The position numbers were made by a program, and so were the translations under genes. DNA of 14,859 nucleotides, taken from IMG/VR virus record IMGVR_UViG_2675903606_000023, positions 1 to 14,859 of that record. The stretch is one strand, 5' to 3'. Every line of letters begins with the position of its first letter. The first letter of the stretch is position 1. Source of the stretch: a virus. Taxonomy: Duplodnaviria; Heunggongvirae; Uroviricota; Caudoviricetes. The notes below the pieces were generated by a model, which saw only the letters and a list, made by a program, of their open reading frames with translations, was not told where the DNA came from and made no database searches. Of this stretch, positions 1,395-14,859 are shown in pieces.

Positions 1395-1649
1395 TTAACC
1401 GGAACTTGCATTTTTGGCACCTGGTTGTTTCTGGTTTTCGATCCATCGCATAATTTCTTCGATGTTGTACAGGCATTCACTGTAGTGCCCCGGATCACCT
1501 TCTACAGCGTAATGGCGGTATTCTTTTCCCTGCATCCATGACTTTCTTCTTGCCCGCTCAATGGTGCCAGGCTTTAGCCCTGTTGATGCAATGAGGACTC
1601 TCTCCGTACACCATTTGCTGGGGGTTATCTGATAGATGATTGTCTGCAT
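1395..1649 (-). CDS. xis: Excisionase-like small DNA-binding protein (Xis)
   Basis: 84-aa ORF immediately upstream of int on the same strand; AGGAG SD 6 nt upstream of ATG; sequence pattern (W...RW...GKEYRHY) resembles the winged-helix Xis family. Family call is from memory, not a search. Confidence 0.6.
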   Translation of the reverse strand: MQTIIYQITPSKWCTERVLIASTGLKPGTIERARRKSWMQGKEYRHYAVEGDPGHYSECLYNIEEIMRWIENQKQPGAKNASSG

Positions 1650-1805
1650 GCCAAGCTCCTAAAACGTTTATCCGCGGCAGTGGCACCACACTTCAAACAT
1701 TCGTCTCACAATTTCGCGACAGTAGAAACCGTCAACATCTCGCGTCAGGTCATAGCGACTGCCATAACGCTGGTGGACCCATAGTTCAAATGCTTTATTC
1801 ACTCT

Positions 1806-2048
1806 TCACTTCCTTTTCATGGCGCGTAATTTTTTCAGGTGAGCTTCCTGCTCTGTTTCTGCCAGTATTTGTCGGTATTCCTGGTGATCAATATGTTCAA
1901 ACTGGTTGTTGAATTCACTGATGCGTACTCGACCGGAGTGTCCGTCCATGCGTCGAAAGAACACTGAGTGCTCAGTGCTGCGAGTAATCACCACAGGGTA
2001 TCCGGTCCTGTCCGTGTATATTTGCCCGCGTTGAATAAGTGTGAACAT
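1806..2048 (-). CDS. Hypothetical phage protein (80 aa from ATG at 2048; ORF is open up to 2081)
   Basis: ORF with GGGGA SD about 7 nt upstream of ATG at 2048, which lies 4 nt after the stop of the upstream gene; no recognisable family. Confidence 0.45.
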   Translation of the reverse strand: MFTLIQRGQIYTDRTGYPVVITRSTEHSVFFRRMDGHSGRVRISEFNNQFEHIDHQEYRQILAETEQEAHLKKLRAMKRK

Positions 2049-2052
2049 GTGG

Positions 2053-2682
2053 TTATCCCCAGCGGCAAATCGCAAAAACAATCAGCGCGATCGACATTGC
2101 AACACCAACAATTGCAAATGCATCAGGCCAGGTCATTGATTCACCTCCTGCGGCGGCTCTGGTAGCTGCATCCAGAACAAGGCGTTCCCTAACCACGATA
2201 AACATTCGCTCACTACAGCTTATCCAACCATCCGGAGTTACCGGAGAGTTGCCGGGTTCTTTAATGTGCAAGCGAGGCTCACCATCTTTTGGTTCAGGCC
2301 ACTGGCGCTTCATGTTGATCTTCAATTTATCTTCCATAGCAGCGGTAATTTCAGCATCACTGATACCAGCACGGCGCTGTGCATCCCACAACAGGAACTG
2401 CATATCAGCCCACTCGCTGAGATCGTCAGGTTCGGCTGCGGCTTCCAGAGCCTCTTTTGAGAGATGTTTCAGCGGACCAATGGGGCCAACGCAGCCAAAT
2501 GTGGAGTCAGACCATTTGGCATGCTCGTGGCGAATCTGTTCGCGTTCCAGTGATGCCAGTGCAATTTTTAATGCGGTAAGCATGTTGTTTTGATCTTCAT
2601 CAAGTCCGAACGGTATTTCATCCCGTGCTGACTCAATGCTGGTAATCGTTTTCTGTAGCCATTCTTTGGTAATAGTGGTCAT
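2053..2682 (-). CDS. Hypothetical early protein, DUF550/MazG-like N-terminal region (tentative) with C-terminal hydrophobic segment
   Basis: 209-aa ORF, AGGAG SD 7 nt upstream of ATG; start lies 2 nt after the stop of the Ea22-like gene; C-terminal AFAIVGVAMSIALIVFAICRWG looks like a transmembrane anchor. The DUF550 assignment is recollection only. Confidence 0.5.
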   Translation of the reverse strand: MTTITKEWLQKTITSIESARDEIPFGLDEDQNNMLTALKIALASLEREQIRHEHAKWSDSTFGCVGPIGPLKHLSKEALEAAAEPDDLSEWADMQFLLWDAQRRAGISDAEITAAMEDKLKINMKRQWPEPKDGEPRLHIKEPGNSPVTPDGWISCSERMFIVVRERLVLDAATRAAAGGESMTWPDAFAIVGVAMSIALIVFAICRWG

Positions 2683-2683
2683 C

Positions 2684-3028
2684 TCACTCTCCTTCTATGC
2701 GAATACCAGCAGCAGTCAGTGCTGCATTGACCTCATCAGCGTAGTAGTACGTTAATCCACTTGATGATTTAGCCAGCTTGAATGGTTCTGGTAACTTCAC
2801 TGTGCGGGACTCCTGTTCGTCGATACGCTGTTTTGCTTCCTCCAGTTCATCCAGCAAATCAGCGATAATATCCACTTCACGATGACGGATTTCTCTCTTA
2901 AACGCAGCCAAAGCTGCATCACAATCCTGCTCAGCATTTGGACTGTCTGGATTTTCCTGATACCACGCCAGCGTCGATTGATAGTTTTGTGCCGCCTCAC
3001 GCAATGCCTGATAGTCAATCTTGCTCAC
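2684..3028 (-). CDS. Ead/Ea22-like protein
   Basis: 114-aa ORF starting at GTG with AGGAGG SD 6 nt upstream; N-terminal MSKIDYQALREAA... resembles lambdoid Ea22/Ead-like proteins; position between xis and the immunity region matches the lambda ea22 location. Confidence 0.55.
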   Translation of the reverse strand: MSKIDYQALREAAQNYQSTLAWYQENPDSPNAEQDCDAALAAFKREIRHREVDIIADLLDELEEAKQRIDEQESRTVKLPEPFKLAKSSSGLTYYYADEVNAALTAAGIRIEGE

Positions 3029-3329
3029 TGGCTGCCTCCTTTGCCGGGATTTCTAACTTTTGAGTGGTTGTATCAAATTCAAACAACTTAACCACGTCAT
3101 CAAACAGGACATAATCACCATCAGGATCTTCAGTCATATCTGCGCCACAATCCTGACCGCACGAGTCGCAACCATCCATATCAAGCTCGTATCGCTTCAG
3201 GTTTGCGATATTTGATAAATTCAGCGCCAGTACAGCCAGGTCATAAACCTCTTCGGCAGTGACATCGCTGTTCAGTCCCATTTCATGGCGATATATGATT
3301 TTTTCTACTCGTTGTTTTGTGATCGTCAT
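3015..3329 (-). CDS. Hypothetical acidic phage protein (start uncertain: TTG 3353, ATG 3329 or ATG 3281)
   Basis: ORF 3015..3353; the ATG at 3329 has an AAGAG/GGAG SD-like purine stretch upstream; 3' end overlaps the Ea22-like start by 14 nt; acidic, Cys-containing C-terminal half. Confidence 0.45.
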   Translation of the reverse strand: MTITKQRVEKIIYRHEMGLNSDVTAEEVYDLAVLALNLSNIANLKRYELDMDGCDSCGQDCGADMTEDPDGDYVLFDDVVKLFEFDTTTQKLEIPAKEAASEQD

Positions 3330-3600
3330 TTTTCTCTTCACTCCGATATACAAGGATTACTACACCCCCTCTGCTGATTGCGCGAGCTGGATCCCCTGGT
3401 TCCATGCCGTCAATTCCGAAGGCTTCGGAAAACGCATTCATTGCCTTCTGGCGTTCATCCTGCTTACGGCGTTTATTCCATTTTTTCAGGAACAACAGCG
3501 ACAGCCACCGTCCGCTGCAGAACACGATGTAAAAATAACCAAGGAGCGCCAGGCCGACATTCAGGGCCGTTTCTATGGTTAGTTGTGAGTCAGTTGCCAT
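3283..3600 (-). CDS. Small putative membrane protein (single N-terminal transmembrane helix, basic juxtamembrane segment)
   Basis: 105-aa ORF; N-terminal hydrophobic stretch LTIETALNVGLALLGYFYIVFCSG followed by KKWNKRRKQDERQK; overlaps neighbouring genes at both ends. Confidence 0.45.
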   Translation of the reverse strand: MATDSQLTIETALNVGLALLGYFYIVFCSGRWLSLLFLKKWNKRRKQDERQKAMNAFSEAFGIDGMEPGDPARAISRGGVVILVYRSEEKNDDHKTTSRKNHISP

Positions 3601-3838
3601 TTCTTACCTGTTTAAGTAACTGGTTGAACATAACACTTAGGGGATTGCTGTATCCAAACGGCAGATTGTTTACGCAGTACAGAATCATTTTGTTTTTTTC
3701 TCCAGTTCGTACTATTAACCCATTCCACAATAACCGTGATAATTCATTACTGATAGAAGTTGCGCTTCTTCCAAGTGCGAGGGATATATCTTCTCTACTG
3801 CAATCTGGATTTTCCTGGATATACTCGATAACGGTCAT
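3590..3838 (-). CDS. Small hypothetical protein with helix-turn-helix-like segment
   Basis: ORF 3590..3880; the ATG at 3838 has an AAGGGA SD about 6 nt upstream and lies just after the stop (3849) of the upstream gene; SREDISLALGRSATSISNELSRLL resembles a winged-helix recognition region. Confidence 0.5.
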   Translation of the reverse strand: MTVIEYIQENPDCSREDISLALGRSATSISNELSRLLWNGLIVRTGEKNKMILYCVNNLPFGYSNPLSVMFNQLLKQVRNGN

Positions 3839-3848
3839 GTGGTCCCTT

Positions 3849-4430
3849 TTACTTAATATCTGTTTCGGATTGCATGCCATGAGTATTCATTTCGTTAATA
3901 ATTTCATCCAGAAGGATTTCAAGCCCTTCTCGACCCATATCTGAAAGAATGAAACCTTTATCAGGGGAAGTAGTGAGCATTTTCTGATAAAGAAACAGCG
4001 CTCTTCCCATTCCTTCAGCTTCGCCGTATTTTTGAATTAAATTCCATTCAATATACTGTTGTAAGGCAAATCGAATGGGGCCGGGATATATCGTCATAAA
4101 CCCATACATCCCGTTATATACCACGGCGTGTTCAGTTGTTCCGTGTTCATTCAGGATATCAATTGTGCCGTTCTTGTCTTCTTCTTCGTTGATGAATGCC
4201 GTCACATACAACCATCGCCACTGAGCAACCTTCATCTCAACCGGAAGTTTACCCAGTAATCCTGCTTCGTCGGCTTGCGCCAGACACTGAAGGATACGTA
4301 AACCTCGCACATTAGGAGTATCGAATTCTCCGGCATCCAGACGACGTATGGCGTCGTGATAATCAATCGTCATACTGCCAGTTCGTATACCATTGGCTGT
4401 TGCTTCAGCCTGGAATTCATCGTATTGCAT
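3849..4430 (-). CDS. Hypothetical phage protein (193 aa), function unknown
   Basis: Long ORF with GAGGAA SD about 9 nt upstream of ATG at 4430; coding-like composition; no family recognised by eye. Confidence 0.55.
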   Translation of the reverse strand: MQYDEFQAEATANGIRTGSMTIDYHDAIRRLDAGEFDTPNVRGLRILQCLAQADEAGLLGKLPVEMKVAQWRWLYVTAFINEEEDKNGTIDILNEHGTTEHAVVYNGMYGFMTIYPGPIRFALQQYIEWNLIQKYGEAEGMGRALFLYQKMLTTSPDKGFILSDMGREGLEILLDEIINEMNTHGMQSETDIK

Positions 4431-4435
4431 GATAT

Positions 4436-4630
4436 TTATTCCTCATCTTCATCTTCATCTTCATCTGCTGGTGCAATAACGTCATATCCTGCCTTTTCTG
4501 CAATAAACAGGAATGTTGAAAGAGTTCCTACAAGTTCATCGTCATGAACATGGCGAATGAATATTACTTTCCCGTTTTTGATGGTCAGCAATATTCTGGT
4601 TTGTTCGTGTTCTGCTGTTTTCTGATGCAT
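4436..4630 (-). CDS. Small protein with poly-acidic C-terminal tail (…ADEDEDEDEE)
   Basis: 64-aa ORF, GGGAGA SD 6 nt upstream of ATG at 4630; the C-terminal tail is encoded by the (TCATCT)x4 repeat at 4443..4466. Confidence 0.5.
   Translation of the reverse strand: MHQKTAEHEQTRILLTIKNGKVIFIRHVHDDELVGTLSTFLFIAEKAGYDVIAPADEDEDEDEE
4443..4466. repeat. Hexanucleotide tandem repeat (TCATCT)x4 encoding an alternating Asp/Glu tail
   Basis: Four perfect tandem copies read directly from the sequence, in frame at the 3' end of the 64-aa ORF. Confidence 0.9.
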
Positions 4631-4632
4631 TA

Positions 4633-4746
4633 TTATCTCCCGTATGCTTTACGCAGAAATAAGCAGGCAATATGCATGTAATTTTCACCGTATTGTGCAA
4701 TAAGGCAGGCGGTCTTGTGTGATGCCATATTCTTTATAAAAGTCAC
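4633..4746 (-). CDS. Candidate small ORF (37 aa from GTG 4746; 31 aa from ATG 4728), not in the supplied ORF track
   Basis: GGAGG (4758..4754) lies 7 nt upstream of GTG at 4746; the reading frame runs to a TAA at 4635..4633, 2 nt before the ATG of the 64-aa gene. Translation: VTFIKNMASHKTACLIAQYGENYMHIACLFLRKAYGR. Confidence 0.25.
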   Translation of the reverse strand: MTFIKNMASHKTACLIAQYGENYMHIACLFLRKAYGR

Positions 4747-4824
4747 AATAAAGCCTCCTGTGGATTAAGGTTGTAACAATCCCCGGCGATAAAACCGCAA
4801 TAAACGTTCAGGGCATATTTGTTG

Positions 4825-5190
4825 TTATTGCGCTAATTCTTTTTCGGCAGCAGCTTTTGTATACTCACATGCAAAACTCAGAATTTCGCTGCCGAGTGTT
4901 TTCGTTTCGTGATTACTGGACATATGTAATACCTGTGTTGCATGCAATAAATGATAAACATTTACCGCAAATGAATCAGGCTCCAGACAAATGCCTTCGT
5001 AATTATCTTGCTGTGAGGTTGTTTCTGTCATTGCTCCTGAAGTGCATGCGAGCCTGTTTTTGACAATTCTCTTTTCTCTAATCACTATATCGGCAACATC
5101 TATTGCCTTTACAACCTCCGGGAGAAGTTCCGGGTTTGTATAATCAAAGTCATCAACATGGAGAACAGTTATGTTTTCGAACTTTTTCAT
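4825..5190 (-). CDS. Hypothetical phage protein (121 aa), function unknown
   Basis: ORF with AGGAAG SD about 4-5 nt upstream of ATG at 5190; no recognisable family. Confidence 0.55.
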   Translation of the reverse strand: MKKFENITVLHVDDFDYTNPELLPEVVKAIDVADIVIREKRIVKNRLACTSGAMTETTSQQDNYEGICLEPDSFAVNVYHLLHATQVLHMSSNHETKTLGSEILSFACEYTKAAAEKELAQ

Positions 5191-5318
5191 GGCTTCCTCA
5201 GCTGACTTATATGTTCTGCTATATAGCGAGTCTCAGAAGTGTTTTCATATTGAGACTGTTTCCGCAATGATTGATAAAAATGTTCGCATGTACCTTGAAG
5301 GGCGAAGCGGCGATTATG

Positions 5319-5867
5319 TCACCATTGGTATTGGTTCTTCCGCAGAAGAGCTTCGCGAGATAAGGGGCAAACTTGTTGAGATGCGTCATGGTGTTGCTGC
5401 TCCTCACTTTTTGGTTGCTCCGGAGGAGTAACCTCACCAGTTAACAGGCACATCGGATCGCAGCCAAGAATATTTGCCAGTGGGATAAGCATACTGATAG
5501 TTGGTTCATACTCTCCGCTCTCCCACTGGATGATAATTTCTTCATCGAGATCGAGCAGCCTGGCGAGTTCGGCGGTTGTTAAGCCGCAGGCTTCGCGTTG
5601 GGTGCGAAGGTTAACCAGCCAGCTTTCAGGGAAGGATTGTTTTTGTTGTGCAGGAGAAGCAGCAGATAGAGCATATTCATGGATAAATTCCATTACCTCA
5701 ATGCCCAGTTCCTTTGAGCGAGCACAATCCAGAAGATGGAATGTGCGTACAGCACTTAGCAAATTTGCAATATTTAATGCAAAGGAATCAAGTTCTAAGC
5801 CCTTAAGCGTAACACAGCCGCAGTTGATAAAATTAGTTGTTTCTGGAGTTGCTTTTAGTGTCTTCAT
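5319..5867 (-). CDS. Protein with C-terminal XRE-family helix-turn-helix domain and uncharacterised N-terminal domain (ORF open to TTG at 5897)
   Basis: HTH_XRE-like segment LRTQREACGLTTAELARLLDLDEEIIIQWESGEYEPTISMLIPLANILG in the C-terminal half; ATG at 5867 has a GGCGGA SD-like element upstream; first gene downstream of the PL-like promoter. Confidence 0.6.
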   Translation of the reverse strand: MKTLKATPETTNFINCGCVTLKGLELDSFALNIANLLSAVRTFHLLDCARSKELGIEVMEFIHEYALSAASPAQQKQSFPESWLVNLRTQREACGLTTAELARLLDLDEEIIIQWESGEYEPTISMLIPLANILGCDPMCLLTGEVTPPEQPKSEEQQHHDASQQVCPLSREALLRKNQYQW

Positions 5868-5920
5868 ATATCCGCCAACAATTTTAAATTGAATCAAATC
5901 AAGTTATAATTGATGGTGCG

Positions 5921-5949
5921 ATATTATGTTTTGGGAAACAGGCTGTCAA
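5921..5949 (-). promoter_or_regulatory. Candidate leftward early promoter (PL-like): -35 TTGACA, 17-bp spacer, -10 TAATAT
   Basis: Minus strand reads TTGACA (5949..5944), a 17-nt spacer, then TAATAT (5926..5921); flanked by two TCAA-N7-TTGA inverted repeats (5898..5914 and 5946..5960) that could be repressor operators. Confidence 0.55.
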
Positions 5950-5978
5950 GAAAAAATTGATATCGTATATTTCAGGCA

Positions 5979-6003
5979 GAAAAAAAACGGGCAAAGCCCG
6001 TTA
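5979..6003 (-). terminator. Rho-independent terminator downstream of cI
   Basis: On the minus strand: 7-bp stem AACGGGC/GCCCGTT with a 3-nt loop (6003..5987), followed by a run of 8 U; begins 10 nt after the cI stop codon. Confidence 0.75.
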
Positions 6004-6013
6004 AAATCAAAGA

Positions 6014-6703
6014 CTAACCAAATCTGTTTATGTTGAATGGTACTGATGAGATCACTTTAGACTGGATATAAAGCAGAGCTAACCCCTCTTTTTCGATGCT
6101 CCATGGTTGATAATTGGGGTTATCAGATAACACCATGATTTTGCTTCCAATTTTTTGAAGCCTTTTCACGTAGCATTCTCCATCAAAACAAAATGCATAA
6201 ATACCATCGCCATCAAAATAAGTTACTGTCTTATCAAGAAAAAGAAGGTCGCCAGGTGAGATTGTGGGAGCCATACTGTCTCCTCTGGCGTTACCTATTT
6301 CTATATTTTTGAATGCCCGATTTCCAACAAGACGTCGGGCATATTCAGGATCAAGTTCTATTGAGCGCACTACATCTATCAAGTCACCACGGACATGAGT
6401 TCCATCACCGCAACTAAACTCAACATCAAGGACATTAAATACGACGCTATCTGTTCTTGTCTGGTGTTTCTCTTGCGAAGAAAAGGTTGGTGAGGAGTCT
6501 TCACCTAAGAACCAGGATTGTGGATAACCGCTAATCTCTGATAAATGCGCGAGCTTATCACTCCGTGGAAATGTTTTTCCTGTTGTCCAGTACTGCACTG
6601 ATTGCGCACTCACACCTAACTTGCGGGCCAGTTGAGCCTGAGTCCATCCTTTTGCTTTCAGCATCGCGGCTATTCGATTTTCCGTGTTTTTGACGTTCTT
6701 CAT
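6014..6703 (-). CDS. cI: CI-like prophage repressor (N-terminal HTH, C-terminal S24 LexA-like peptidase domain)
   Basis: N-terminal HTH (RIAAMLKAKGWTQAQLARKLGVSAQSVQYW); C-terminal autocleavage motifs GDSMAPTI (Ser) and YVKRL (Lys); AGGA SD 7 nt upstream of ATG at 6703 (ORF open to TTG at 6709); divergent from a Cro-like gene. Confidence 0.85.
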   Translation of the reverse strand: MKNVKNTENRIAAMLKAKGWTQAQLARKLGVSAQSVQYWTTGKTFPRSDKLAHLSEISGYPQSWFLGEDSSPTFSSQEKHQTRTDSVVFNVLDVEFSCGDGTHVRGDLIDVVRSIELDPEYARRLVGNRAFKNIEIGNARGDSMAPTISPGDLLFLDKTVTYFDGDGIYAFCFDGECYVKRLQKIGSKIMVLSDNPNYQPWSIEKEGLALLYIQSKVISSVPFNINRFG

Positions 6704-6709
6704 GACCAA

Positions 6710-6836
6710 ATCCTGTGGGTTTCTTTACAAGGATAAATCTTTACTTGATTTTAGTGTATTCGATCCTTTTGCAACTTGCATGTTAATTTAAACTTGATGT
6801 ATTCTTGATTTATAAAGTTAATATTGGTGCTTTGTT
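6710..6836. promoter_or_regulatory. Divergent cI/cro intergenic control region (OR/PR/PRM equivalent) with repeated CTTGAT motifs
   Basis: 127-bp AT-rich spacer between divergent cI and cro-like genes; CTTGAT occurs at 6744..6749, 6793..6798 and 6804..6809 (the last two 11 bp apart); candidate -35/-10 hexamers present but not uniquely assignable by eye. Confidence 0.6.
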
Positions 6837-7127
6837 ATGGAAGGAAATGATTACGACAAACTTCGTGCATTAATTGCGCAAAATGCCATAGCGCGAAATC
6901 TTGGTGTGACGCCGCAAGCGGTGAATCAGTGGTTTTCAAAAAGCACAATTCCTGCTCGTTTCGTTTTACGAGTATGTGAAGTAGTTGCATGGAAGGTTAC
7001 GCCTCATGGCTTAAGGCCAGATCTTTATCCTCACCCTGAAGATGGAATTCCTAACTTGTTACGCAAAAGCCTAAATCCAAGTTCACCACACAGAGCGGAT
7101 GGAATACACGCAGGAGATAAACAATGA
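6837..7127 (+). CDS. Cro-like transcriptional regulator (YdaS/Cro-type HTH)
   Basis: 96-aa ORF divergent from cI; HTH segment IARNLGVTPQAVNQWFSKSTIP; pattern resembles the YdaS-type Cro analogues of Rac-like prophages. Confidence 0.7.
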   Translation: MEGNDYDKLRALIAQNAIARNLGVTPQAVNQWFSKSTIPARFVLRVCEVVAWKVTPHGLRPDLYPHPEDGIPNLLRKSLNPSSPHRADGIHAGDKQ

Positions 7128-7831
7128 ACACCGCAATTTTTAACGGCAAAGCATCCATGACCAGCGTTGAGATCGCAGAGCTGGTGGGAAGCCGACCAGA
7201 TAGTGTTAAGAGAACTATTGAAACACTGGCTAAAAAGGGAATCATCCAATTTCCACAGACTGTGGAAATTGAGAATAAACAATCACTTGGGCCTCGCCGA
7301 TTTTCTAGCGCGTATGTATTCGAAGGTGAACGAGGTAAGCGCGACAGCATCATTGTCGTCGCACAGCTCTGTCCTGAATTCACTGCTCGCCTGGTAGATC
7401 GCTGGCGCGAACTGGAAGAACAGATCCGTAAGCCAATGAGCGAAATCGAAATGGTTGCCGCGATGGCTCTTGAAGCAGTTCGTCAGCAGAAACGGATCAC
7501 TCAGGTGGAAGAAAAAGTCAGCCACGTTGCTGAAACAGTCGAGCAAATTAAAAAGGGCACTATTCGTGAGGGCTATGCCGGATATCGCCAACTGAAAGCA
7601 AAAACCGGTTTGTCAGATGATAAATGCCGCAATCTGGTGAACGCCTATCAGATTCCTACAGACACCCATGAGTTCATGACGCCGGACGGATTGTTGTCAC
7701 GTCGCGCAATTGTTGCTGTGGAACCGTTTATGGCTGCTTTTTATCGGGTTATGGAGGAAGCAGAACCGCGAGGGACTCGCTGGTATCACCCGAAAATGGG
7801 GTTATTTCAGGTTATTGGTTGGCAGCGGTGA
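7124..7831 (+). CDS. Phage regulatory protein with Rha/antirepressor-like N-terminal DNA-binding region (tentative)
   Basis: 235-aa ORF whose ATG overlaps the cro-like stop (ATGA at 7124..7127); GGAG SD 8 nt upstream; N-terminal SVEIAELVGSRPDSVKRTIETL resembles the Rha-family HTH signature. Confidence 0.55.
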   Translation: MNTAIFNGKASMTSVEIAELVGSRPDSVKRTIETLAKKGIIQFPQTVEIENKQSLGPRRFSSAYVFEGERGKRDSIIVVAQLCPEFTARLVDRWRELEEQIRKPMSEIEMVAAMALEAVRQQKRITQVEEKVSHVAETVEQIKKGTIREGYAGYRQLKAKTGLSDDKCRNLVNAYQIPTDTHEFMTPDGLLSRRAIVAVEPFMAAFYRVMEEAEPRGTRWYHPKMGLFQVIGWQR

Positions 7832-7854
7832 AAAAAAGCCGGGAGTAACCCGGC
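7831..7854 (-). terminator. Hairpin with U-tract on the minus strand (antisense-oriented intrinsic terminator) abutting the stop codon of the 235-aa gene
   Basis: GCCGGG (7838..7843), loop agtaa, CCCGGC (7849..7854); the plus strand has A7 immediately 5' of the stem (7831..7837), so the canonical U-tract is on the minus-strand transcript. Confidence 0.5.
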
Positions 7855-8053
7855 TCACTCAACATCAATAACGGGGAGCTGTTTCGCATAAAACGGCTCC
7901 GAAACATCCAAGAACAGTTCTAAAGATATCAGCAGCTATATGATCATTTCAAGACCAAATATTGATTCTGCAATTTCGGGACGTTACACTGTCTCCGCAC
8001 CTTATAAAGCGGGTGCCGGGGGTCGCAGCCCGGAATTGTCAACGGCGATATAT

Positions 8054-8073
8054 GACGCGCCAGCGTCTTTTTT
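8054..8073 (+). terminator. Candidate weak rho-independent terminator (tR1-like position)
   Basis: GACGC-gcca-GCGTC 5-bp GC-rich stem with tetraloop, followed by T6 (8068..8073), in the untranslated spacer downstream of the 235-aa regulator. Confidence 0.4.
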
Positions 8074-8239
8074 ATCGTCCGCGCTCACGCACGCCAGAAT
8101 TATGGTGGGCTGGGCAGGGGAGCCGAAAGGCTCGCCGGTCTCCGTTGACGCCGGTACTGCGAACCCTGTTCAGTCTGCCACCAGTGAGTTTCGCAGCTCC
8201 GGTGGTGGAAGTTTTCCACAGTCAACGGAGGCTGCCATC

Positions 8240-8602
8240 ATGGCTACTGTCCCAACTTCCCCATACCTGAAAATTGAAGTTGTCAACGGCAAGGCCGTTA
8301 TTTTCTCCCTGCATGTTGCCTGCCACTTTAAGCGAATGCACCAGAACATCGTTGACAAAATCGAGTATCTGAACTGCTCACGCGAGTTTTTTACCCGCAA
8401 TTTCATACCGGGTACTTATCACATCTACGGTGACTCCCTGCGTGGTTATTACATCACTCTTGATGGCCTGATGATGCTTCAGCTTGGGTTAAGTCTGCGC
8501 ACAATGCGGTACTACGAGAGCTGCATTGAGGCATTCCATGAAGCTGAAACCAGCCTGAATCATACAGCTTTCCGCTGTAATCAATGGGAGGTGCGCCCAT
8601 GA
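8240..8602 (+). CDS. Rha-family phage regulatory protein (120 aa from ATG 8240)
   Basis: GGAGG SD 8 nt upstream of ATG at 8240; segments FKRMHQNIVDKIEYL and YHIYGDSLRGYYITLDGLMMLQLGLS match the Rha-family pattern as I remember it. The upstream in-frame extension to 7940 has non-coding-like composition and no SD. Confidence 0.55.
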   Translation: MATVPTSPYLKIEVVNGKAVIFSLHVACHFKRMHQNIVDKIEYLNCSREFFTRNFIPGTYHIYGDSLRGYYITLDGLMMLQLGLSLRTMRYYESCIEAFHEAETSLNHTAFRCNQWEVRP

Positions 8603-8832
8603 TTCGCCGCCTCGTTAATTCTCTGTATCACCGATACAACCGTTGCCCCCGTGTGGGGCAGTGGTTCGCCACCAGCGACGGTCGCGTTCTGCGGGTTTGC
8701 CTGGTCAGCACCGAAAGCCAGAAAGTTGTGTGTGAATTACTGGGGCGTAACTACACCATCAGTTACCCACTAGTGGCGTTTCAGTCCGGAAAAATGTTTA
8801 AACGCCTGGGAGGTGGCTATGCGTCCGTCTGA
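8599..8832 (+). CDS. Small hypothetical protein (77 aa)
   Basis: ATG at 8599 overlaps the stop of the preceding gene (ATGA) and is preceded by GGGAGG at a 7-nt spacing; Cys- and Arg-rich; no family recognised. Confidence 0.45.
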   Translation: MIRRLVNSLYHRYNRCPRVGQWFATSDGRVLRVCLVSTESQKVVCELLGRNYTISYPLVAFQSGKMFKRLGGGYASV

Positions 8833-9712
8833 TCTTCTGCTCGATTTTGGGCATCCGGTTGCTTATTACCCTGGGCTCGTTAAATACATGGGAAGTCCGC
8901 ACGCTGTTATTTTCTTTGGTCAGATTTTTTACTGGCAGGATAAAGCACATGCAGCGGAAGGCGTACATAAAACGCGTGAAGAGATACAACACGAAACCGG
9001 ACTTACATTTGAACAACAGGCTGTAGCGCGTAAGCATCTTGTGTCCAGAGGCATTTTGGTTGAAACCAACAAGCGTCTTGAGCACAAAATGTTCTACCGT
9101 ATAGATTGTGAGCGCCTTAATGAAATTATCAATGAAAACAATCAGTTTTCCCGAAATGGGGAAACCCGTTTTCGGGAAACTGTAAAACCCAATTTCGCGG
9201 AGGAGGGAAAGCCTTCACCGCGGACACGGGAAACCCCTCGCCGCGGTGAAGGGAAAACCAATTTCGATCTTACAGAGAATACAACAGAGATTACTTCAGA
9301 GAGTACTACAGAGAGTAAAAACACTATTGGCGCATCCGCTGACGCGTCTGCACCAGCGCGTTCTGCCCGACAGGAATATTCACCGGAATTTGAACAGGCA
9401 TGGCAGGAATATCTCAAACGTGCTGGTGGCAATTCCAAGTCAGCAGCCTTCAAAGCCTGGAAAGCACGTATCAGGGAGGGAATAAAACCGGAGAACATGC
9501 TTGATGGCGTGAAGCGGTATGCCGCCTGGGTGCGTGTCTCTGGAAATACCGGTACCCAGTTCGTGAAGCAGGCGTCGACGTTCTTTGGACCCGATCGTCA
9601 TTTCGAGGAATCCTGGCAACAGCCAGCAGCCCCCGGAGGTGGGCGGGGCAAAAGCCTCCCGATCTCGGGATTCAGTGAACAGGACTACGGCTCAACGAAC
9701 TTCAACTGGTGA
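8819..9712 (+). CDS. Replication initiator / replisome organiser (lambda O-like functional position) with internal origin-like repeats
   Basis: GGGAGG SD 5 nt upstream of ATG at 8819 (ORF open to GTG at 8813); N-terminal winged-helix-like region; low-complexity linker encoded by iteron-like DNA (9147..9316); followed by a DnaC-like loader and DnaB-like helicase. Confidence 0.7.
   Translation: MRPSDLLLDFGHPVAYYPGLVKYMGSPHAVIFFGQIFYWQDKAHAAEGVHKTREEIQHETGLTFEQQAVARKHLVSRGILVETNKRLEHKMFYRIDCERLNEIINENNQFSRNGETRFRETVKPNFAEEGKPSPRTRETPRRGEGKTNFDLTENTTEITSESTTESKNTIGASADASAPARSARQEYSPEFEQAWQEYLKRAGGNSKSAAFKAWKARIREGIKPENMLDGVKRYAAWVRVSGNTGTQFVKQASTFFGPDRHFEESWQQPAAPGGGRGKSLPISGFSEQDYGSTNFNW
9147..9316. 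repeat. Iteron-like repeat cluster (GGGAAAC-type repeats and palindromes) followed by ACAGAGA-type repeats: candidate replication origin inside the initiator gene
   Basis: GGGAAA(A/G)C at 9159, 9174, 9205, 9228 and 9251; palindromic arms TTTTCCCGAAA/TTTTCGGGAAA and CACCGCGG/CCGCGGTG flank two of the copies; ACAGAGA-like repeats at 9271..9316. Confidence 0.55.
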
Positions 9713-9731
9713 TTTTGTGGGGAGGGTGAAA

Positions 9732-10622
9732 ATGACTAATTTCCTGAACAAACAACACATGCAACACGACAAAGCGCAGTTACTTAACCGCAAGGCAGAC
9801 CTGGAAGAGGAGCTGGCATTTGTCCGTGGCGGAAAGCGTCCGTGGCGCTGTGAGCATTGGGTGCAAAGCACTGAGACGGTGTCCTGCGGGAAACACGGAA
9901 AATACACGCGCTATGTGCTGACTGGCCCGGATGTAAGGGGGAAAGCTGTCAAACGGGTGTCCGGTTGCCTGTCCTGCCTCAGTGAGGAGCTGGGCCGCGT
10001 GTATGACGAATTACGCGCCCTGAAGGTTCGTGAATTACTCGATCAGGCCGGTATTGCCCGCCGGTTCCAGGACTGTGAGTTTGAGAATTATCAGGCGGTG
10101 AATACTGACGCACAGAAAAACCTTGAAGCCTGTCAGCGCTATGCCGCTTCCTGGAAGAAATGTCTCGCTGCAGGCACCAGCATGGTCATGATTGGCAATT
10201 GTGGTACCGGTAAAAATCACCTGGCTGTATCAATGGCAAAAAATATTATTCGCCACCACCAGGCAACCATAGAAATCACGGATGTAATGCGGCTTACCCG
10301 TGCGGTGAAAAATACCTGGCGCCACAACTCTGAGCGCACTGACGATGAAGTGATTAATCATTTTGCATCGCTGGATCTGCTTATCATCGATGAGGTTGGT
10401 GTGCAGTTCGGTACGCCTGCGGAGATAACCATCCTGCAGGAAATCATAAATGCGCGTTACGAAAGCGTTTTACCGACAATTTTGATCAGCAACCTGACGT
10501 TTGAACAGCTTAAGGAATCCATTGGTGAACGGATTGTGGATCGCGTTACTGATGGTGGGCGTAACTGCCTGGTGTTTGGTTGGGAAAGCTACCGCGCGCA
10601 TATCAGAGGTGTGGCAGCATGA
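9732..10622 (+). CDS. DnaC-like helicase loader (IstB/DnaC-family AAA+ ATPase) with N-terminal Cys-rich zinc-ribbon-like region
   Basis: Walker A GNCGTGKNHLA and Walker B LLIIDEVG; Cys cluster CEHW..CGKHG..CLSCL; GGAGGG SD 5 nt upstream of ATG at 9732 (ORF open to 9585). Confidence 0.8.
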   Translation: MTNFLNKQHMQHDKAQLLNRKADLEEELAFVRGGKRPWRCEHWVQSTETVSCGKHGKYTRYVLTGPDVRGKAVKRVSGCLSCLSEELGRVYDELRALKVRELLDQAGIARRFQDCEFENYQAVNTDAQKNLEACQRYAASWKKCLAAGTSMVMIGNCGTGKNHLAVSMAKNIIRHHQATIEITDVMRLTRAVKNTWRHNSERTDDEVINHFASLDLLIIDEVGVQFGTPAEITILQEIINARYESVLPTILISNLTFEQLKESIGERIVDRVTDGGRNCLVFGWESYRAHIRGVAA

Positions 10623-12019
10623 CAAACCCGACAAATCCGGCGTGGCGTAATGATGACCTGGAAGGAGCTGTCATCGGTGCGTTTTTTCTGCGTGGGGCTG
10701 ATCCGGAAGTGATGGATATTCTGGCCACGCTTCCGGCGGATGTCTTTTTCGTGCGTCAGTACAGGGATATTTACGCGGGAATTTGCAGACAGGCCCGTGT
10801 ATCCGGCGTCATTGACCCCGTACTGCTGTGCAATGAGATGCCGGAACTTGCCCCGGTGATTACCGACACCGGACGCAAAACCTGGGTGAAGTCTTCACTG
10901 GAGCACTATGTCGCAGCGTTGCGGCGTAATGCCGTACTGCGCGATGCAGAAAAAACACTGACTGAAGCATTACAGAATTTACGTGATGCGTATACCTGTG
11001 AAGCAGCCGAGGATGCCCTGAAGGATGCGCAGAACATGATGGCCTCACTGTCGACCGGAAAGGGCGTCATTCAGCCGGTTCACATTGATGATGTCCTTCC
11101 AGAAGTGGTCGACCGTGTTGAATGCCGCAATCAGGGACTGGAGAAATCCAGGGCGCTGATGACCGGTATTGATGAGCTGGACGCAAAAACGGGCGGTATG
11201 GAGCCAGGCGACCTGGTATTCATTGCGGCTCGTCCTTCGATGGGGAAAACCGAACTTGCGCTGGATATCATCGACAAGGTGACTGAGCAGGGGCATGGCG
11301 TGCTTCTGTTCACCATGGAGATGGCGAACATTCAGATTGGTGAACGTATGGTGTCTGCTGCCGGGGGAATGCCGGTATCCCGTCTTAAGTCAGTTGCCCG
11401 TTTTGAAGACGAAGACTGGGCACGTTTCTCACAGGGCGTGGGACGAATGACGGGGCGTAATATCTGGATGGTGGACCAGGCAAACCTGACCATTGATGAG
11501 ATATGTGCAACTACGAGGCACCACCGGATGAAACACCCGGAAACGGCGCTGGTGGTGGTCGATTACCTCGGCCTGATTAAAACCCGCAGCATGGGGCGTC
11601 ACGACCTTGCTGTGGGGGAAATCTCAAAGGGACTAAAAAGCCTGGCAAAATCCGGCGGTTTTCCGCTGATTGCTCTGAGCCAGCTCTCCCGCGGTGTGGA
11701 ATCCAGACCCAATAAACGCCCCATGAACTCGGACCTGAAAAACTCAGGGGAAATAGAGGCGGATGCAGACATCATTCTGATGCTTTACAGGGATGAGGTG
11801 TACAACCCGGAGACACAGGCGAGAGGCATAGCAGAAATCAACATCACGAAACAGCGTAATGGTACGCTGGGTACCATTTACCGGCGTTTTCATAACGGGC
11901 ATTTTCTGCCTGTGGACCAGGAGAGTGCCCGGGTTCTTTCCACTCCCATGACGCCGGGCAATCCGCGCAGATACAGCAATAACCGCATGTCGGGTAGTAA
12001 AACGGAGCGTTTATTTTGA
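10619..12019 (+). CDS. DnaB-like replicative DNA helicase
   Basis: 467 aa from ATG at 10619, which overlaps the loader stop (ATGA); DnaB-type N-terminal domain and RecA-like C-terminal domain with Walker A ARPSMGKTELAL and Walker B-like VVVDYLGLI. Confidence 0.9.
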   Translation: MTNPTNPAWRNDDLEGAVIGAFFLRGADPEVMDILATLPADVFFVRQYRDIYAGICRQARVSGVIDPVLLCNEMPELAPVITDTGRKTWVKSSLEHYVAALRRNAVLRDAEKTLTEALQNLRDAYTCEAAEDALKDAQNMMASLSTGKGVIQPVHIDDVLPEVVDRVECRNQGLEKSRALMTGIDELDAKTGGMEPGDLVFIAARPSMGKTELALDIIDKVTEQGHGVLLFTMEMANIQIGERMVSAAGGMPVSRLKSVARFEDEDWARFSQGVGRMTGRNIWMVDQANLTIDEICATTRHHRMKHPETALVVVDYLGLIKTRSMGRHDLAVGEISKGLKSLAKSGGFPLIALSQLSRGVESRPNKRPMNSDLKNSGEIEADADIILMLYRDEVYNPETQARGIAEINITKQRNGTLGTIYRRFHNGHFLPVDQESARVLSTPMTPGNPRRYSNNRMSGSKTERLF

Positions 12020-12273
12020 ACAACAGAACAACCACTGTTTCACCGGAACAACTTCGTCGGCAGGCGCAGGAGATGCTTCGTTGTGCTGAACAGATGGAAA
12101 AAACGAGCGTGAAAAAAGATACGCTCCGCAAGCAGCTTACTCCGGCGCTTCGTGATCTGCTGCAGGCAAAACACCGCACACAAAAGGCGGTGGATGAGCT
12201 GGTGGATTGCGTGGCGGAACTGGAAGGACAGGTAAGCCAGTTTGAAATACTGGTGAAGGAGTTTACTGCGTGA
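12016..12273 (+). CDS. Hypothetical coiled-coil protein (85 aa), TTG start overlapping the helicase stop
   Basis: TTG at 12016 overlaps the TGA of the helicase gene (TTGA); GGAG 8 nt upstream; charged, helix-rich composition. Confidence 0.45.
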   Translation: MNNRTTTVSPEQLRRQAQEMLRCAEQMEKTSVKKDTLRKQLTPALRDLLQAKHRTQKAVDELVDCVAELEGQVSQFEILVKEFTA

Positions 12274-12318
12274 TGGCTGAATTTTTTCTTCTGCGCTCAT
12301 GCAATACCGTTCGCTGAG

Positions 12319-13314
12319 GTGACCGTGAGAGCACTACTGACCCCTGAAATTGCCCCGCGTATGGGGATCGTATTGTTCAGGCCCGGTTCAGAGCTGATGC
12401 CCCTGTTTATGCAGGGGCGTGTCCTGCTGGAGCCTGAGCCGGAACGTTATTCATCTTTTGCCAGTGGTGCCGTTCCGGCGGCATCACAACCGCTGGCGGA
12501 TGATCCTGCCGTTCGGGCCGTGTTCCGCAATGAGGCAGTGATCCGTCGTGCTGGTGGCGTGGAATGTCTTGAAAGCTGGTTACTTCGTGAAAAGGGCTGT
12601 CAGTGGCCTCATTCCAACTGGCACAGCGAGAACATGACCACAATGCGACACGCTCCGGGCGCAATCCGTCTGTGCTGGCACTGCGATAACCAGCTGCGCG
12701 ATCAGTTCACGGAACGGCTGGAATCAATGGCAACGGATAACTGTGCCCGCTGGGTGTTGTCTGTTGTGCGTCGGGATCTCGGTTTTGATGACAGTCACGT
12801 TGTGACAATGCCGGAACTGTGCTGGTGGCTGGCTCGTAATGACCTGGCTGATGCCTTACCGGAAAGTGCAGCCCGTAAGGCACTGAGATTACCGAAGCCT
12901 GTTGTGCCGTCTGTCACCCGGGAGAGTGACCTTGTTCCTTCGGTTCCTGCCACCAGCATTATCCAGGATAAAGCGAAAAAGGTGCTGGCGCTGAAAGTGG
13001 ATCCAGAGTCGCCGGAGTCTTTTATGTTACGCCCAAAACGTCGTCGCTGGGTTAATGAAAAGTACACGCGCTGGGTTAAGACACAGCCGTGTGCATGTTG
13101 TGGTAAGCCAGCCGACGATCCTCATCACCTGATTGGTCATGGTCAGGGTGGAATGGGTACAAAAGCGCATGACCTTTTTGTGTTGCCTTTGTGCAGAAAA
13201 CACCATGACGAACTGCATGCGGATACCGTGGCATTTGAAGAGAAGTATGGTTCCCAACTGGAGCTGATATTTCGTTTTATCGATCGCGCGCTGGCGATTG
13301 GTGTGCTGTCCTGA
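12319..13314 (+). CDS. DUF968-like protein with C-terminal HNH-like Cys/His motif (putative nuclease); start uncertain
   Basis: 331-aa ORF from GTG at 12319; C-terminal CACCGKPADDPHHLIGHGQGGMGTKAHDLFVLPLCRKHHDELH; located immediately upstream of Q, as in Qin-type prophages. Confidence 0.6.
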   Translation: MTVRALLTPEIAPRMGIVLFRPGSELMPLFMQGRVLLEPEPERYSSFASGAVPAASQPLADDPAVRAVFRNEAVIRRAGGVECLESWLLREKGCQWPHSNWHSENMTTMRHAPGAIRLCWHCDNQLRDQFTERLESMATDNCARWVLSVVRRDLGFDDSHVVTMPELCWWLARNDLADALPESAARKALRLPKPVVPSVTRESDLVPSVPATSIIQDKAKKVLALKVDPESPESFMLRPKRRRWVNEKYTRWVKTQPCACCGKPADDPHHLIGHGQGGMGTKAHDLFVLPLCRKHHDELHADTVAFEEKYGSQLELIFRFIDRALAIGVLS

Positions 13315-13331
13315 TTTTGTGGAGAAAGTTG

Positions 13332-13712
13332 ATGCGTGATATTCAGATAGTTCTTGAACGCTGGGGGGCATGGGCTGCAAGTGGTAACACCGGGGTGGAC
13401 TATTCTCCGATCGCTGCCGGATTCAAAGGACTTTTACCATCTGCCACTAAACCACGTCCGGCCTGCTGCGATGATGACGGACTTATCATTGAAAACTGTC
13501 TTGCTCGTCTGAAGCAGAAAAAACCTGAGGAGTATTCGCTTCTCATTGCTCATTATTTGTTGCGAATATCAAAAAGACAGATAGCCAGGACGAGAAAGAA
13601 AAGCGAAAAAGCAATACGAATTGAGATGCAGATAGCCGAAGGGTTTATTGACGGATGTTTGTCTGTGCTGGGGGTAAGACTGGAGATGGACGACTGGCTG
13701 CTAAAAAAGTAA
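13332..13712 (+). CDS. Late-gene antitermination protein Q (QuuD-like family)
   Basis: 126 aa from ATG at 13332 (GGAG SD 7 nt upstream; ORF open to TTG at 13317); MRDIQIVLERWGAWAA...IAAGFKGLL...CCDDD...EGFIDGCLSVLGVRLEMD matches the QuuD-type Q pattern from memory. Confidence 0.6.
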   Translation: MRDIQIVLERWGAWAASGNTGVDYSPIAAGFKGLLPSATKPRPACCDDDGLIIENCLARLKQKKPEEYSLLIAHYLLRISKRQIARTRKKSEKAIRIEMQIAEGFIDGCLSVLGVRLEMDDWLLKK

Positions 13713-13767
13713 AAAATGATTAGTGCGGTCCGCAAAAAGTATGTCAGTATGTTAAGAGTGGTTACTT

Positions 13768-13788
13768 CGCCCGCGAGCGGGTTTTTTT
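13768..13788 (+). terminator. Rho-independent terminator about 55 nt downstream of Q (tR'-like)
   Basis: GC-only stem CCCG/CGGG with tetraloop CGAG (13770..13781), followed by T7 (13782..13788). Confidence 0.6.
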
Positions 13789-13910
13789 ATGGCTGAAATC
13801 GGTCCAGTACAGTAAACGTGCTGGTGGCGGTGAATACCTGTCTTTCAGCTTGCTGGCTTTTTCGACAAGAGTTATTGGTGTGTCACGTTAACCGAAAAAG
13901 GGAAAAAGAC

Positions 13911-14108
13911 ATGCTGAAACAGCAGGATATGACAGAAACCGCCAGAGTGGTGTTTAATGAATTAAGCGTCACCGAACCGGCGACAGTCGGGGAGATTGCG
14001 CAGAATACTTACCTTTCACGCGAACGCTGTCAGTTAATACTGACCCAACTTGTTATGGCGGGTCTGGCAGACTATCAGTTCGGTTGTTACAGACGCCTTC
14101 CGCAGTGA
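13911..14108 (+). CDS. Small winged-helix/HTH-like protein (65 aa)
   Basis: AAGGG SD 8 nt upstream of ATG at 13911 (ORF open to GTG at 13818 without SD); ATVGEIAQNTYLSRERCQLILTQLVMAGL resembles an HTH recognition region; bracketed by intrinsic terminators on both sides. Confidence 0.5.
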   Translation: MLKQQDMTETARVVFNELSVTEPATVGEIAQNTYLSRERCQLILTQLVMAGLADYQFGCYRRLPQ

Positions 14109-14118
14109 AGGCTTTTTT
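14095..14118 (+). terminator. Rho-independent terminator overlapping the stop codon of the small wHTH gene
   Basis: 6-bp stem GCCTTC/GAAGGC with 6-nt loop (14095..14112), followed by TTTTTTATTT. Confidence 0.65.
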
Positions 14119-14259
14119 ATTTGTGGTAAATGGGCGGCTGGTGGGTGTTAGGGGCACTCACCAGCCATCTGCTCATGCGTTGTGGTCACAAGCAAACCTC
14201 AGGCCCATCTGCTTTGCGCAAAAGCGGTATGAGCCTATCAGAGAAGTGCTTATTGATCT

Positions 14260-14859
14260 ATGGCTAATACTGTAAAAATATCCAGTTGTGAGTTAATCAA
14301 CGCCGACTGCCTGGAATTTATCCGGTCGTTACCCGAAAATTCTGTTGACCTGATAGTCACGGACCCGCCGTACTTTAAAGTGAAGCCTGAGGGCTGGGAT
14401 AACCAGTGGAAGGGCGACGATGATTACCTGAAGTGGCTGGACCAGTGTCTGGCGCAGTTCTGGCGGGTGCTGAAACCTGCCGGAAGTCTTTACCTGTTCT
14501 GTGGTCATCGCCTGGCATCTGATATCGAAATCATGATGCGTGAACGCTTCAATGTGCTGAACCATATTATCTGGGCGAAGCCGTCCGGACGCTGGAACGG
14601 GTGCGACAAGGAAAGCCTGCGGGCGTATTTTCCGGCCACAGAACGCATTCTGTTCGCGGAACATTATCAGGGGCCGTATCGTCCGAAAGATGATGGCGAT
14701 GAGGCGAAGGGCAGGGCACTGAAACAGCATGTGATGGCCCCGCTGATTTCTTACTTTCGTGATGCGCGTGCTGCTCTTGGGATAACGGCAAAACAGATTG
14801 CAGATGCCACAGGAAAGAAAAACATGGTGTCGCACTGGTTCAGTGCCAGTCAGTGGCAG
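14260..14859 (+). CDS. DNA methyltransferase (N6-adenine or N4-cytosine class, DPPY motif), 5' part only; continues beyond the window end
   Basis: Open frame from ATG at 14260 (first ATG after an in-frame TGA at 14254..14256) to the window edge with no stop; translation contains SVDLIVTDPPY, resembling YhdJ-like beta-class amino-MTases; absent from the ORF track because it is incomplete. Confidence 0.8.
   Translation, partial: MANTVKISSCELINADCLEFIRSLPENSVDLIVTDPPYFKVKPEGWDNQWKGDDDYLKWLDQCLAQFWRVLKPAGSLYLFCGHRLASDIEIMMRERFNVLNHIIWAKPSGRWNGCDKESLRAYFPATERILFAEHYQGPYRPKDDGDEAKGRALKQHVMAPLISYFRDARAALGITAKQIADATGKKNMVSHWFSASQWQ

Follow-up and report, generated by a model that had tools for sequence, protein, structure and literature searches.

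Clustered Chi sites in the early-right operon of an Escherichia coli lambdoid prophage with no recognisable recombination or anti-RecBCD genes

Lambdoid phages which carry neither a recombinase nor an inhibitor of the host RecBCD enzyme are already well represented in the literature, and made up approximately half of the 275 lambdoids surveyed by Bobay, Touchon and Rocha in 2013 (PMC3784561). In such genomes (Rec- Inh-, for recombinase and inhibitor) the Chi octamer is over-represented, with a median observed/expected ratio of approximately 3.1 and a concentration of sites between the origin and cos; in Rec+ Inh+ lambdoids, which encode Gam or Abc2 plus a recombinase, Chi is avoided (median ratio of 0) (PMC3784561). 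Phage LLS, described by Zheng et al. in 2025, has no recombination (Rec) module and carries 20 active and 3 inactive Chi sites clustered at its right end, and 62 of 68 lambdoids without a Rec module were found to have at least 8 Chi in active and at most 6 in inactive orientation (PMC12315714). Growth of LLS was slower without RecB or RecC and good without RecD, the full phage yield being reached approximately 1 hour later on a recBCD deletion host (PMC12315714). The orientation termed active for both lambda and LLS is that of Chi on the plus strand (PMC12315714), and Chi rescues the growth of lambda lacking both Red and Gam (PMC12315714, PMC3784561). Here, the Chi content of a 14,859-nucleotide stretch of viral DNA (IMG/VR record IMGVR_UViG_2675903606_000023; the whole stretch is referred to as the window) was analysed; judged by its sequence, it comes from an E. 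coli lambdoid prophage inserted beside mlrA (yehV), of which it covers the left half, from integrase to Q.

The Chi octamer (GCTGGTGG) was found in 11 exact copies, 9 on the plus strand and 2 on the minus strand (Table 1). An earlier reading of the same DNA (the original prediction) had listed seven plus copies and one minus copy; all eight are present where it placed them, but the plus-strand sites at 7180 and 12198 and the minus-strand site at 8669 had been missed. Chi is the commonest plus-strand octamer in the window, with 9 copies against 6 for the runner-up. The early-right operon, running from cro to the methylase gene (6837-14859, approximately 8 kb), holds 10 of the 11 sites (8 plus and 2 minus) at a density of 1.25 per kb, while the 6.8-kb left arm has one Chi and none on its sense strand; the Chi-poor left arm gives way to the Chi-rich right arm at the immunity region (6014..7127). 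Seven of the 9 plus copies lie to the right of a set of iteron-like repeats inside the O-like gene, likened to lambda ori and probably the replication origin, and the first Chi downstream of these repeats (9422) is approximately 100 nt away. The counting script returned the published plus/minus values for both control phages, 0/0 for lambda and 20/3 for LLS (PMC12315714).

The closest complete relative was a prophage of E. coli B19374, located between mlrA (yehV) and btsS, which is 99.2% identical to the window save for an ISEc23 insertion and small indels, in agreement with the E. coli-like host that had been predicted. Approximately 90% identity over 79-87% of the window length was seen for yecE- and ompW-integrated Shiga-toxin and other prophages, with phiP27 and PhiR49_2 as more distant relatives. 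Dinucleotide shuffles (n =200) gave an expectation of 0.49 Chi on both strands, with a maximum of 4, against the 11 observed. Under an order-2 Markov model, which is the trinucleotide model used by Bobay et al., 0.50 copies were expected on the plus strand and 0.34 on the minus strand, and the observed/expected ratio was 13 for the window, 14 for the early-right operon, 4.4 for the complete B19374 prophage and 3.05 for host DNA (192.5 kb). Over-representation of the kind reported for Rec- Inh- lambdoids is therefore seen in all three phage sequences, and the codon-preserving shuffles described below agree. The window, which is approximately one third of a genome, holds 9 active and 2 inactive sites, the complete B19374 prophage holds 13 plus and 3 minus, and the concentration between origin and packaging site is reflected in the 10 of 11 Chi that lie between cro and the window end. 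As all of the sequence-level characteristics of the class are thus present, the finding amounts to recognition of a published phenomenon; the strategy of dispensing with a Rec module and carrying many Chi sites is already known (PMC3784561, PMC12315714). It is likely that the window comes from a phage of this class, in which Chi arrays would recruit host RecBCD-RecA in place of Red and Gam.

A compositional or coding artefact was considered, in which Chi would be frequent merely because CTG and GTG codons are favoured and the early-right coding strand is G-rich. The sense strand, which is G-rich (GC skew between +0.09 and +0.18), does carry all 8 early-right plus copies, four early-right copies encode Leu-Val by favoured codons, and a maximal-order Markov model built from overlapping 7-mers expects 5.6 Chi; this model was set aside as circular, because those 7-mers occur almost solely inside Chi. 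Synonymous codons were shuffled within each of 26 genes, keeping the proteins and per-gene codon usage and leaving intergenic DNA fixed. The plus-strand mean over 5000 such shuffles was 3.17 (including the two fixed intergenic sites) with a maximum of 8, none reaching the 9 observed, and codon-order shuffles gave a mean of 2.55 and a maximum of 6; approximately one in-gene copy is expected under these shuffles compared to 7 observed. The excess over chance claimed in the original prediction was thus upheld under the dinucleotide, order-2 Markov, synonymous-codon and codon-order nulls alike. Every reading frame is used by the plus copies (twice as Ala-Gly-Gly, once as Cys-Trp-Trp and four times as x-Leu-Val-x), and outside sense coding one is antisense within a gene and two are intergenic, a distribution which points to constraint on the DNA word and not on a peptide or codon pair. 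In addition, the 24 one-mismatch neighbours of Chi average just 0.46 copies each, the sense strand of the left arm is empty of Chi, and both the B19374 structural module (2.3 Chi expected) and the whole of lambda are Chi-free at similar codon usage (PMC12315714). Given the shuffles, the use of three frames and these two Chi-free sequences, a codon-usage artefact is refuted, and a coding origin for the cluster is scarcely credible.

The predicted lack of gam and red genes was supported by Pfam, PHROGs and tblastn searches in the window and in its relatives. No annealing protein, exonuclease, single-stranded DNA-binding protein or RecBCD inhibitor was found by Pfam or PHROGs among the early-left open reading frames of at least 60 amino acids from xis to cI. 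Searches by tblastn for Gam, Bet, Exo, Abc1, Abc2, Erf, RecT, RecE, NinB and NinG were negative in the window and in the whole B19374 prophage, which also answers for Gam in a complete relative, and the same set (lambda, P22 and Rac queries) was negative in PPyecE_EH1910, phiP27, PhiR49_2 and LLS; Sak, Sak4, GamL and MuGam were covered solely via the Pfam and PHROGs scans. One early-left protein of unknown function (193 amino acids) gave no fold match to recombination or inhibitor proteins. The absence of recombination and inhibitor genes is well supported but not proven, because proteins of unknown function remain in this operon. The window does not group with the lambda/P22-type Rec+ Inh+ phages, having no Gam, Abc2, Bet, Erf or RecT and a 13-fold over-representation of Chi.

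The complete B19374 prophage was used to place the sites relative to the packaging end. Its Chi counts (plus/minus) were 1/0 from int to cI, 8/3 from cro to the methylase gene, 3/0 from the methylase gene to the terminase gene and 0/0 in the 23.6-kb lambda-like structural module, the stretch from cro to the terminase gene/cos thus holding 11 plus and 3 minus. The structural module, which extends from terminase to the tail-fibre assembly gene, is 55% G+C with the same G/C skew, and its genes all lie on the plus strand. The lambda cos sequence (GGGCGGCGACCT) is found 190 nt upstream of the terminase small-subunit gene, at a point 7.5 kb past the right-hand end of the window, and lies in a stretch of 367 nt with 84% identity to the cos region of lambda. 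As cos lies to the right, plus-strand Chi face RecBCD entering from the exposed right end; the original prediction of a lambdoid arm with late genes and cos to its right, and of plus copies active for an enzyme entering from that side, was therefore borne out in B19374. This prophage looks mosaic, with a Chi-free late module in the style of Rec+ lambda-type phages joined to a Chi-rich early module. A few Chi are present in the late modules of phiP27, PhiR49_2 and LLS, which are of other types.

Chi density was also compared with that of the host chromosome. A host sample of 192.5 kb (two B19374 prophage flanks and three 50-kb segments, all of the same replichore) contained 32 plus and 10 minus Chi, giving 0.218 per kb with 76% on the leading strand, in line with the 1008 Chi in 4.6 Mb of K-12 (PMC12315714). 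The early-right operon exceeds this density approximately 5.7-fold, and when host DNA was scanned in 306 sliding windows of 8,023 nt, not one reached 8 plus or 10 total sites, the maxima being 5 and 6 (Poisson P(>=10) =1.5e-5); the predicted excess thus survived comparison with host DNA (0.22 against 1.25 per kb). Set against the ordinary E. coli chromosomal Chi landscape, the strand fraction of the operon fits (80% compared to 76%) and its density does not.

The sites could nevertheless be a matter of chromosomal housekeeping, acquired by amelioration or selected for the repair of host forks passing through the prophage, with no lytic role. The prophage plus strand is indeed the host leading strand (GC skew is positive in the host flanks, and the sequence of the B19374 record reads away from the origin), the plus fraction of the early-right operon is close to that of the host, and Zheng et al. 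caution that cryptic prophages could gather Chi as the chromosome does (PMC12315714). The FtsK-orienting polar sequence (KOPS; GGGNAGGG) also occurs at 8112, 9719 and 14709, three times on the plus strand and never on the minus, co-oriented with host replication; the KOPS excess is weak, 18 of 200 shuffles reaching 3. Such an origin does not account for a density that no host window of the same size comes near, nor for the B19374 structural module, which is Chi-free in the same chromosome, in the same orientation and at higher G+C; a chromosome-wide or codon-driven process is unlikely, as it would have hit this 23.6-kb module too. The same clustering is found in LLS, phiP27 and PhiR49_2, which are virion-sequenced or induced phages, and NinG-type lambdoid loci from the same hosts have a Chi density six-fold below that of the host. 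Housekeeping alone is accordingly an improbable explanation. Orientation with respect to host replication was dropped as a discriminator, nearly all lambdoid prophages being co-oriented with the fork; since the plus strand is the leading strand and the bias is host-like, orientation cannot separate a phage function from a host one. The strong signals are the density of Chi and its clustering and placement, not its orientation.

If the phage depends on host RecBCD-RecA as proposed, terminase would cut cos during lytic growth and keep the left end, so that the right end, on the lysis-gene side, would stay open. RecBCD would load at this open end or at a rolling-circle tail and would unwind and degrade the DNA leftwards, passing a run of Chi (in B19374, 11 plus sites lie within approximately 15 kb of cos, eight of them inside the window); several sites would have to be passed, because a single Chi is recognised only sometimes. 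At Chi, degradation would be attenuated and RecA loaded on the 3' strand, and strand invasion into sister genomes would then rescue the DNA and yield multimers for cos packaging. The attenuation of RecBCD degradation by Chi is established, and a pure shield may be considered, in which Chi only turns off the RecBCD nuclease at rolling-circle tails or cos-cut ends and recombination is irrelevant. Orientation and placement by the exposed end fit a shield as well as they fit recombination, the window sequence cannot separate the two roles, and protection was proposed by Bobay et al. for Rec+ Inh- phages (PMC3784561). What tells them apart is the behaviour of LLS: deletion of recBCD slows its growth, which should be no poorer under a shield alone, and it grows well on recD hosts, which are nuclease-less yet recombination-proficient (PMC12315714). 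As LLS does worse without RecBCD and well in recD hosts, recruitment of RecBCD-RecA is favoured over protection alone, and a shield with no part for recombination appears decidedly improbable. The Chi-based protection from RecBCD put forward in the original prediction was correct in essence, but is probably half of the mechanism, the other half being the recruitment for recombination indicated by LLS; protection and recruitment are aspects of one Chi response.

Similar Chi contents were found in the relatives PPyecE_EH1910 (11 plus/6 minus), phiP27 (12/5) and PhiR49_2 (11/3). Most Chi sites of the window are found unaltered at the orthologous positions, including some in stretches of just 73-80% local identity, and there is some turnover. 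In phiP27 the site at 12198 is intact despite 73% local identity, as are those at 11548 (88%) and 13820 (86%, with changed flanking bases), while the position orthologous to 7180 reads GTTGGTGG; PhiR49_2 has ACTGGTGG at the position of 12550. The single early-left site (1769) is present in B19374 and in PhiR49_2, but PPyecE_EH1910 and phiP27 have lost it. The site at 14137 is orthologous to the LLS Chi at 39318, the octamer being intact at 80% local identity, and the minus-strand site at 8669 is kept in all four lambdoid relatives having the region. Conservation of the sites was therefore not decisive as proof of selection, the inactive copies being equally kept and the relatives not being independent of one another.

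The 12-mer CGTGCTGGTGGC is common to three of the plus-strand sites (9419-9430, 12547-12558 and 13817-13828), and GTGCTGGTGGC is also found at a fourth (12821). This extended motif was rejected as a true signal, since the flanks differ at the orthologous phiP27 sites and the motif is absent in LLS; as only the octamer is conserved, the shared 12-mer is probably due to chance or local history. A T directly before Chi is also common in LLS (9 of 20 sites).

Several points weigh against a selected lytic role for the array, and these are to be set beside what was directly observed, namely the presence and density of the sites, the direction in which they point with respect to cos in a relative, the lack of known recombination or inhibitor genes and the likeness of the relatives. 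The mechanism itself is proposed by extension of LLS and of the genetics of lambda red gam chi+ mutants. The strand asymmetry on which the original prediction relied exists as a 9:2 split, but a two-sided binomial test gives P =0.065, and the 82% plus fraction of the window (80% in the early-right operon) is on a par with the leading-strand bias of the host (76%). In a lysogen, the same Chi sites would also serve the repair of chromosomal forks (PMC3603311). The two inactive-orientation Chi are as well conserved as the active ones, and the early-right module is common to the relatives by descent, so that their Chi are not independent evidence of selection. The five early-left proteins of unknown function could conceal a new RecBCD inhibitor or recombinase. 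Both the cos position and the Chi-free late module are taken from relatives with different late modules, the late half of this prophage lying outside the window. Finally, the host osmF-yehYXW-mlrA region just left of the prophage has 4 plus and 1 minus Chi in 3.6 kb, while the 27-kb right host flank has just 2 Chi; with chromosomal Chi density as patchy as this, short flanks are a poor control.

The DUF968 gene upstream of Q, which contains three of the Chi sites, was used as the anchor for a wider survey. Eighty IMG/VR loci carrying it were collected, in all of which the anchor gene is at least 98% identical to that of the window; 43 were non-redundant, mostly with flanks unlike the window. 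Outside the anchor these 43 loci contained 351 plus and 78 minus Chi in 759 kb (0.57 per kb, 82% plus), the density of DUF968-anchored loci ranging from 0.57 to 0.71 per kb, and their Chi is densest in the stretch that begins 6 kb upstream of the anchor and ends 4 kb downstream. With lambda NinG as the anchor instead, 80 loci were obtained in the same way (46 non-redundant, 848 kb), and the 46 contained 28 plus and 2 minus Chi, or 0.035 per kb, which is 16-fold below the DUF968 set and six-fold below the host. None of the 80 DUF968-anchored loci matched any of eight Rec-module queries, NinB or NinG, while a Rec-module homologue was present in 40 of the 80 NinG-anchored loci and DUF968 in none of these 80. 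DUF968 and NinB/NinG are thus mutually exclusive in the 160 sampled loci, and they track Chi-rich and Chi-poor neighbourhoods respectively.

The DUF968 protein is a His-Me finger protein matching PF06147 and PF16784, as well as PHROG 96 ('HNH endonuclease'). In structure, its HNH domain appears to come nearest to Ref, a nuclease of P1 that depends on RecA, although the Pfam match to the P1 Ref family PF16786 is weak (E =0.09 over a 76-residue His-Me finger) and not significant; by sequence, the PDB gave just weak matches, to YbcO and zinc fingers. DUF968 proteins were tied by Curtis et al. in 2014 to Orf-like domains fused to HNH, along with Erf, Rad52 and RusA fusions (PMC4118853), and were placed by Jablonska et al. 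in a group with YbcO and YdfU that is separate from Ref and NinG (PMC5714182). It may be suggested, tentatively and as something we regard as doubtful, that in Chi-rich lambdoids without a Rec module this nuclease fills the nin slot held by Orf (NinB) and Rap (NinG) in lambda and P22, as a dedicated accessory of Chi, RecBCD and RecA. It could then cut D-loops or junctions made by RecA, finishing or amplifying recombination, and phages described as having no Rec module would carry a minimal, host-dependent recombination gene. The association with Chi may equally be mere linkage within one mosaic module. The DUF968 gene is not discussed in Bobay 2013 (PMC3784561) or Zheng 2025 (PMC12315714), and its use as a mark of the Chi-rich type, exclusive with NinB/NinG, is possibly the only new element here. 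Phage phiP27 has no DUF968 gene, and in the matching region a GIY-YIG nuclease gene lies just after Q; a different nuclease family thus stands at about the same place in a Chi-rich relative.

The gene layout of the window (Table 1) follows the lambdoid order of int, xis, S24 repressor, cro-like, O-like, DnaC-like, DnaB and Q genes, as assigned by Pfam, PHROGs and the RefSeq annotation of B19374. The early-left operon encodes an excisionase, DUF4222, a dATP/dGTP pyrophosphohydrolase, Ead/Ea22, DUF4752, a MarR-like protein and the five proteins of unknown function. Rightward, the order is cro-like, Rha/Ant-like, Ash, O-like, DnaC-like, DnaB, an 85-amino acid gene, DUF968/HNH, Q and the 5' part of a DNA methyltransferase gene. 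In the relatives the lysis genes, cos and terminase come after Q, and, given the position of Q here, the late operon would lie to the right of the window, and with it the lysis genes and cos. The candidate origin consists of ACAGAGAnTAnn, a 12-nt unit present four times at 9271-9320, and AAACCCnnTTTCG, present three times at 9162-9266. In B19374 the early-left operon is interrupted by ISEc23 (IS66-family) at a point matching approximately 3560 of the window; the element is absent from the window, the copy of which therefore looks more intact.

Table 1. Chi sites, genes and other features located in the window.
Feature	Position	Strand	Remarks
Chi	1769..1776	+	antisense to 44-aa gene (1668-1802, -); only copy in early-left arm
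Chi	7180..7187	+	Rha/Ant-like gene, sense, frame xLVx (ELVG)
Chi	8669..8676	-	inactive orientation; antisense in 82-aa gene
Chi	9422..9429	+	O-like gene, frame AGG
Chi	11548..11555	+	DnaB-type helicase gene, frame ALVV
Chi	12198..12205	+	85-aa gene, frame ELVD
Chi	12550..12557	+	DUF968/HNH gene, frame AGG
Chi	12821..12828	+	DUF968/HNH gene, frame CWW
Chi	12950..12957	-	inactive orientation; antisense in DUF968/HNH gene
Chi	13820..13827	+	intergenic, downstream of Q gene
Chi	14137..14144	+	intergenic, upstream of DNA methyltransferase gene
Integrase gene	75-1361	leftward	Pfam/PHROGs
Early-left operon, xis to helix-turn-helix regulator	1395..5897	-	usual lambdoid Rec-module location
cI-like S24 repressor gene	6014-6709	-	immunity region (6014..7127), divergent from cro-like gene
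cro-like gene	6837-7127	+	immunity region (6014..7127)
O-like replication-initiator gene	8813-9712	+	PHROG replication-initiation O-like families
Iteron-like repeats, candidate replication origin	9162..9320	+	inside O-like gene
DnaC-like helicase loader gene	9732-10622	+	replication block 9732..12019
DnaB-type replicative helicase gene	10619-12019	+	replication block 9732..12019
DUF968/HNHc_6 His-Me finger nuclease gene	12319..13314	+	nin position, upstream of Q; three Chi sites inside
Q-family late antiterminator gene	13332..13712	+	

Among described systems, the prophage most resembles LLS. The two share the lambdoid gene order, an early-left region without an annealing protein, exonuclease, single-stranded DNA-binding protein or anti-RecBCD gene, and at least 8 top-strand Chi with few on the bottom strand, located in the early-right/late-regulatory region by the right cos end; they also share a homologous DUF968/HNH gene (gp47 in LLS, 55% protein identity), a homologous methylase gene and one orthologous Chi. 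However, just approximately 1.2 kb of the window aligns with LLS at the DNA level, and the integrase, immunity and replication modules differ, LLS having an O-family gene and a methyltransferase in place of the DnaC/DnaB-type replication genes found here. Nine of the 20 top-strand Chi of LLS lie over structural genes, where B19374 has none, and dependence on RecBCD is demonstrated in LLS but for the present phage is a prediction. Poorer growth would be expected of it on hosts lacking RecBCD, with an influence of the Chi sites on phage yield.

The E. coli chromosome has the identical octamer with approximately 76-80% of copies on the leading strand, co-oriented with the prophage sites, but host Chi are spread genome-wide, while those of the prophage end abruptly at the immunity region and, in B19374, at the terminase gene. 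Phage P1 has 50 Chi in 94.8 kb, needs RecA and RecBCD, and encodes the Ref HNH nuclease (PMC12315714). It is similar to the present prophage in its high Chi density, in having Chi as its top octamer and in its dependence on host recombination (PMC12315714), which for the prophage is proposed, but it is not lambdoid, and its Chi serve terminal-repeat recombination for circularisation.

In lambda red gam chi+ mutants, as is proposed for the window, top-strand Chi are used by RecBCD from the right cos end (PMC12315714, PMC3784561). These mutants carry a single Chi which arose in the laboratory, in contrast to a dense natural array in a phage natively without a Rec module, and exo, bet and gam are present in wild-type lambda, which is devoid of Chi. 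The early-right module of the window is common to many Shiga-toxin and other E. coli prophages, to which the Chi finding is thus relevant. The window adds one more clean case to the trade-off recognised in 2013 and 2025 and leaves the current picture unchanged: lambdoid phages either bring their own recombination functions and RecBCD inhibitor and purge Chi, as lambda does, or bring neither and load Chi beside the exposed packaging end, as do LLS and, probably, the phage described here.

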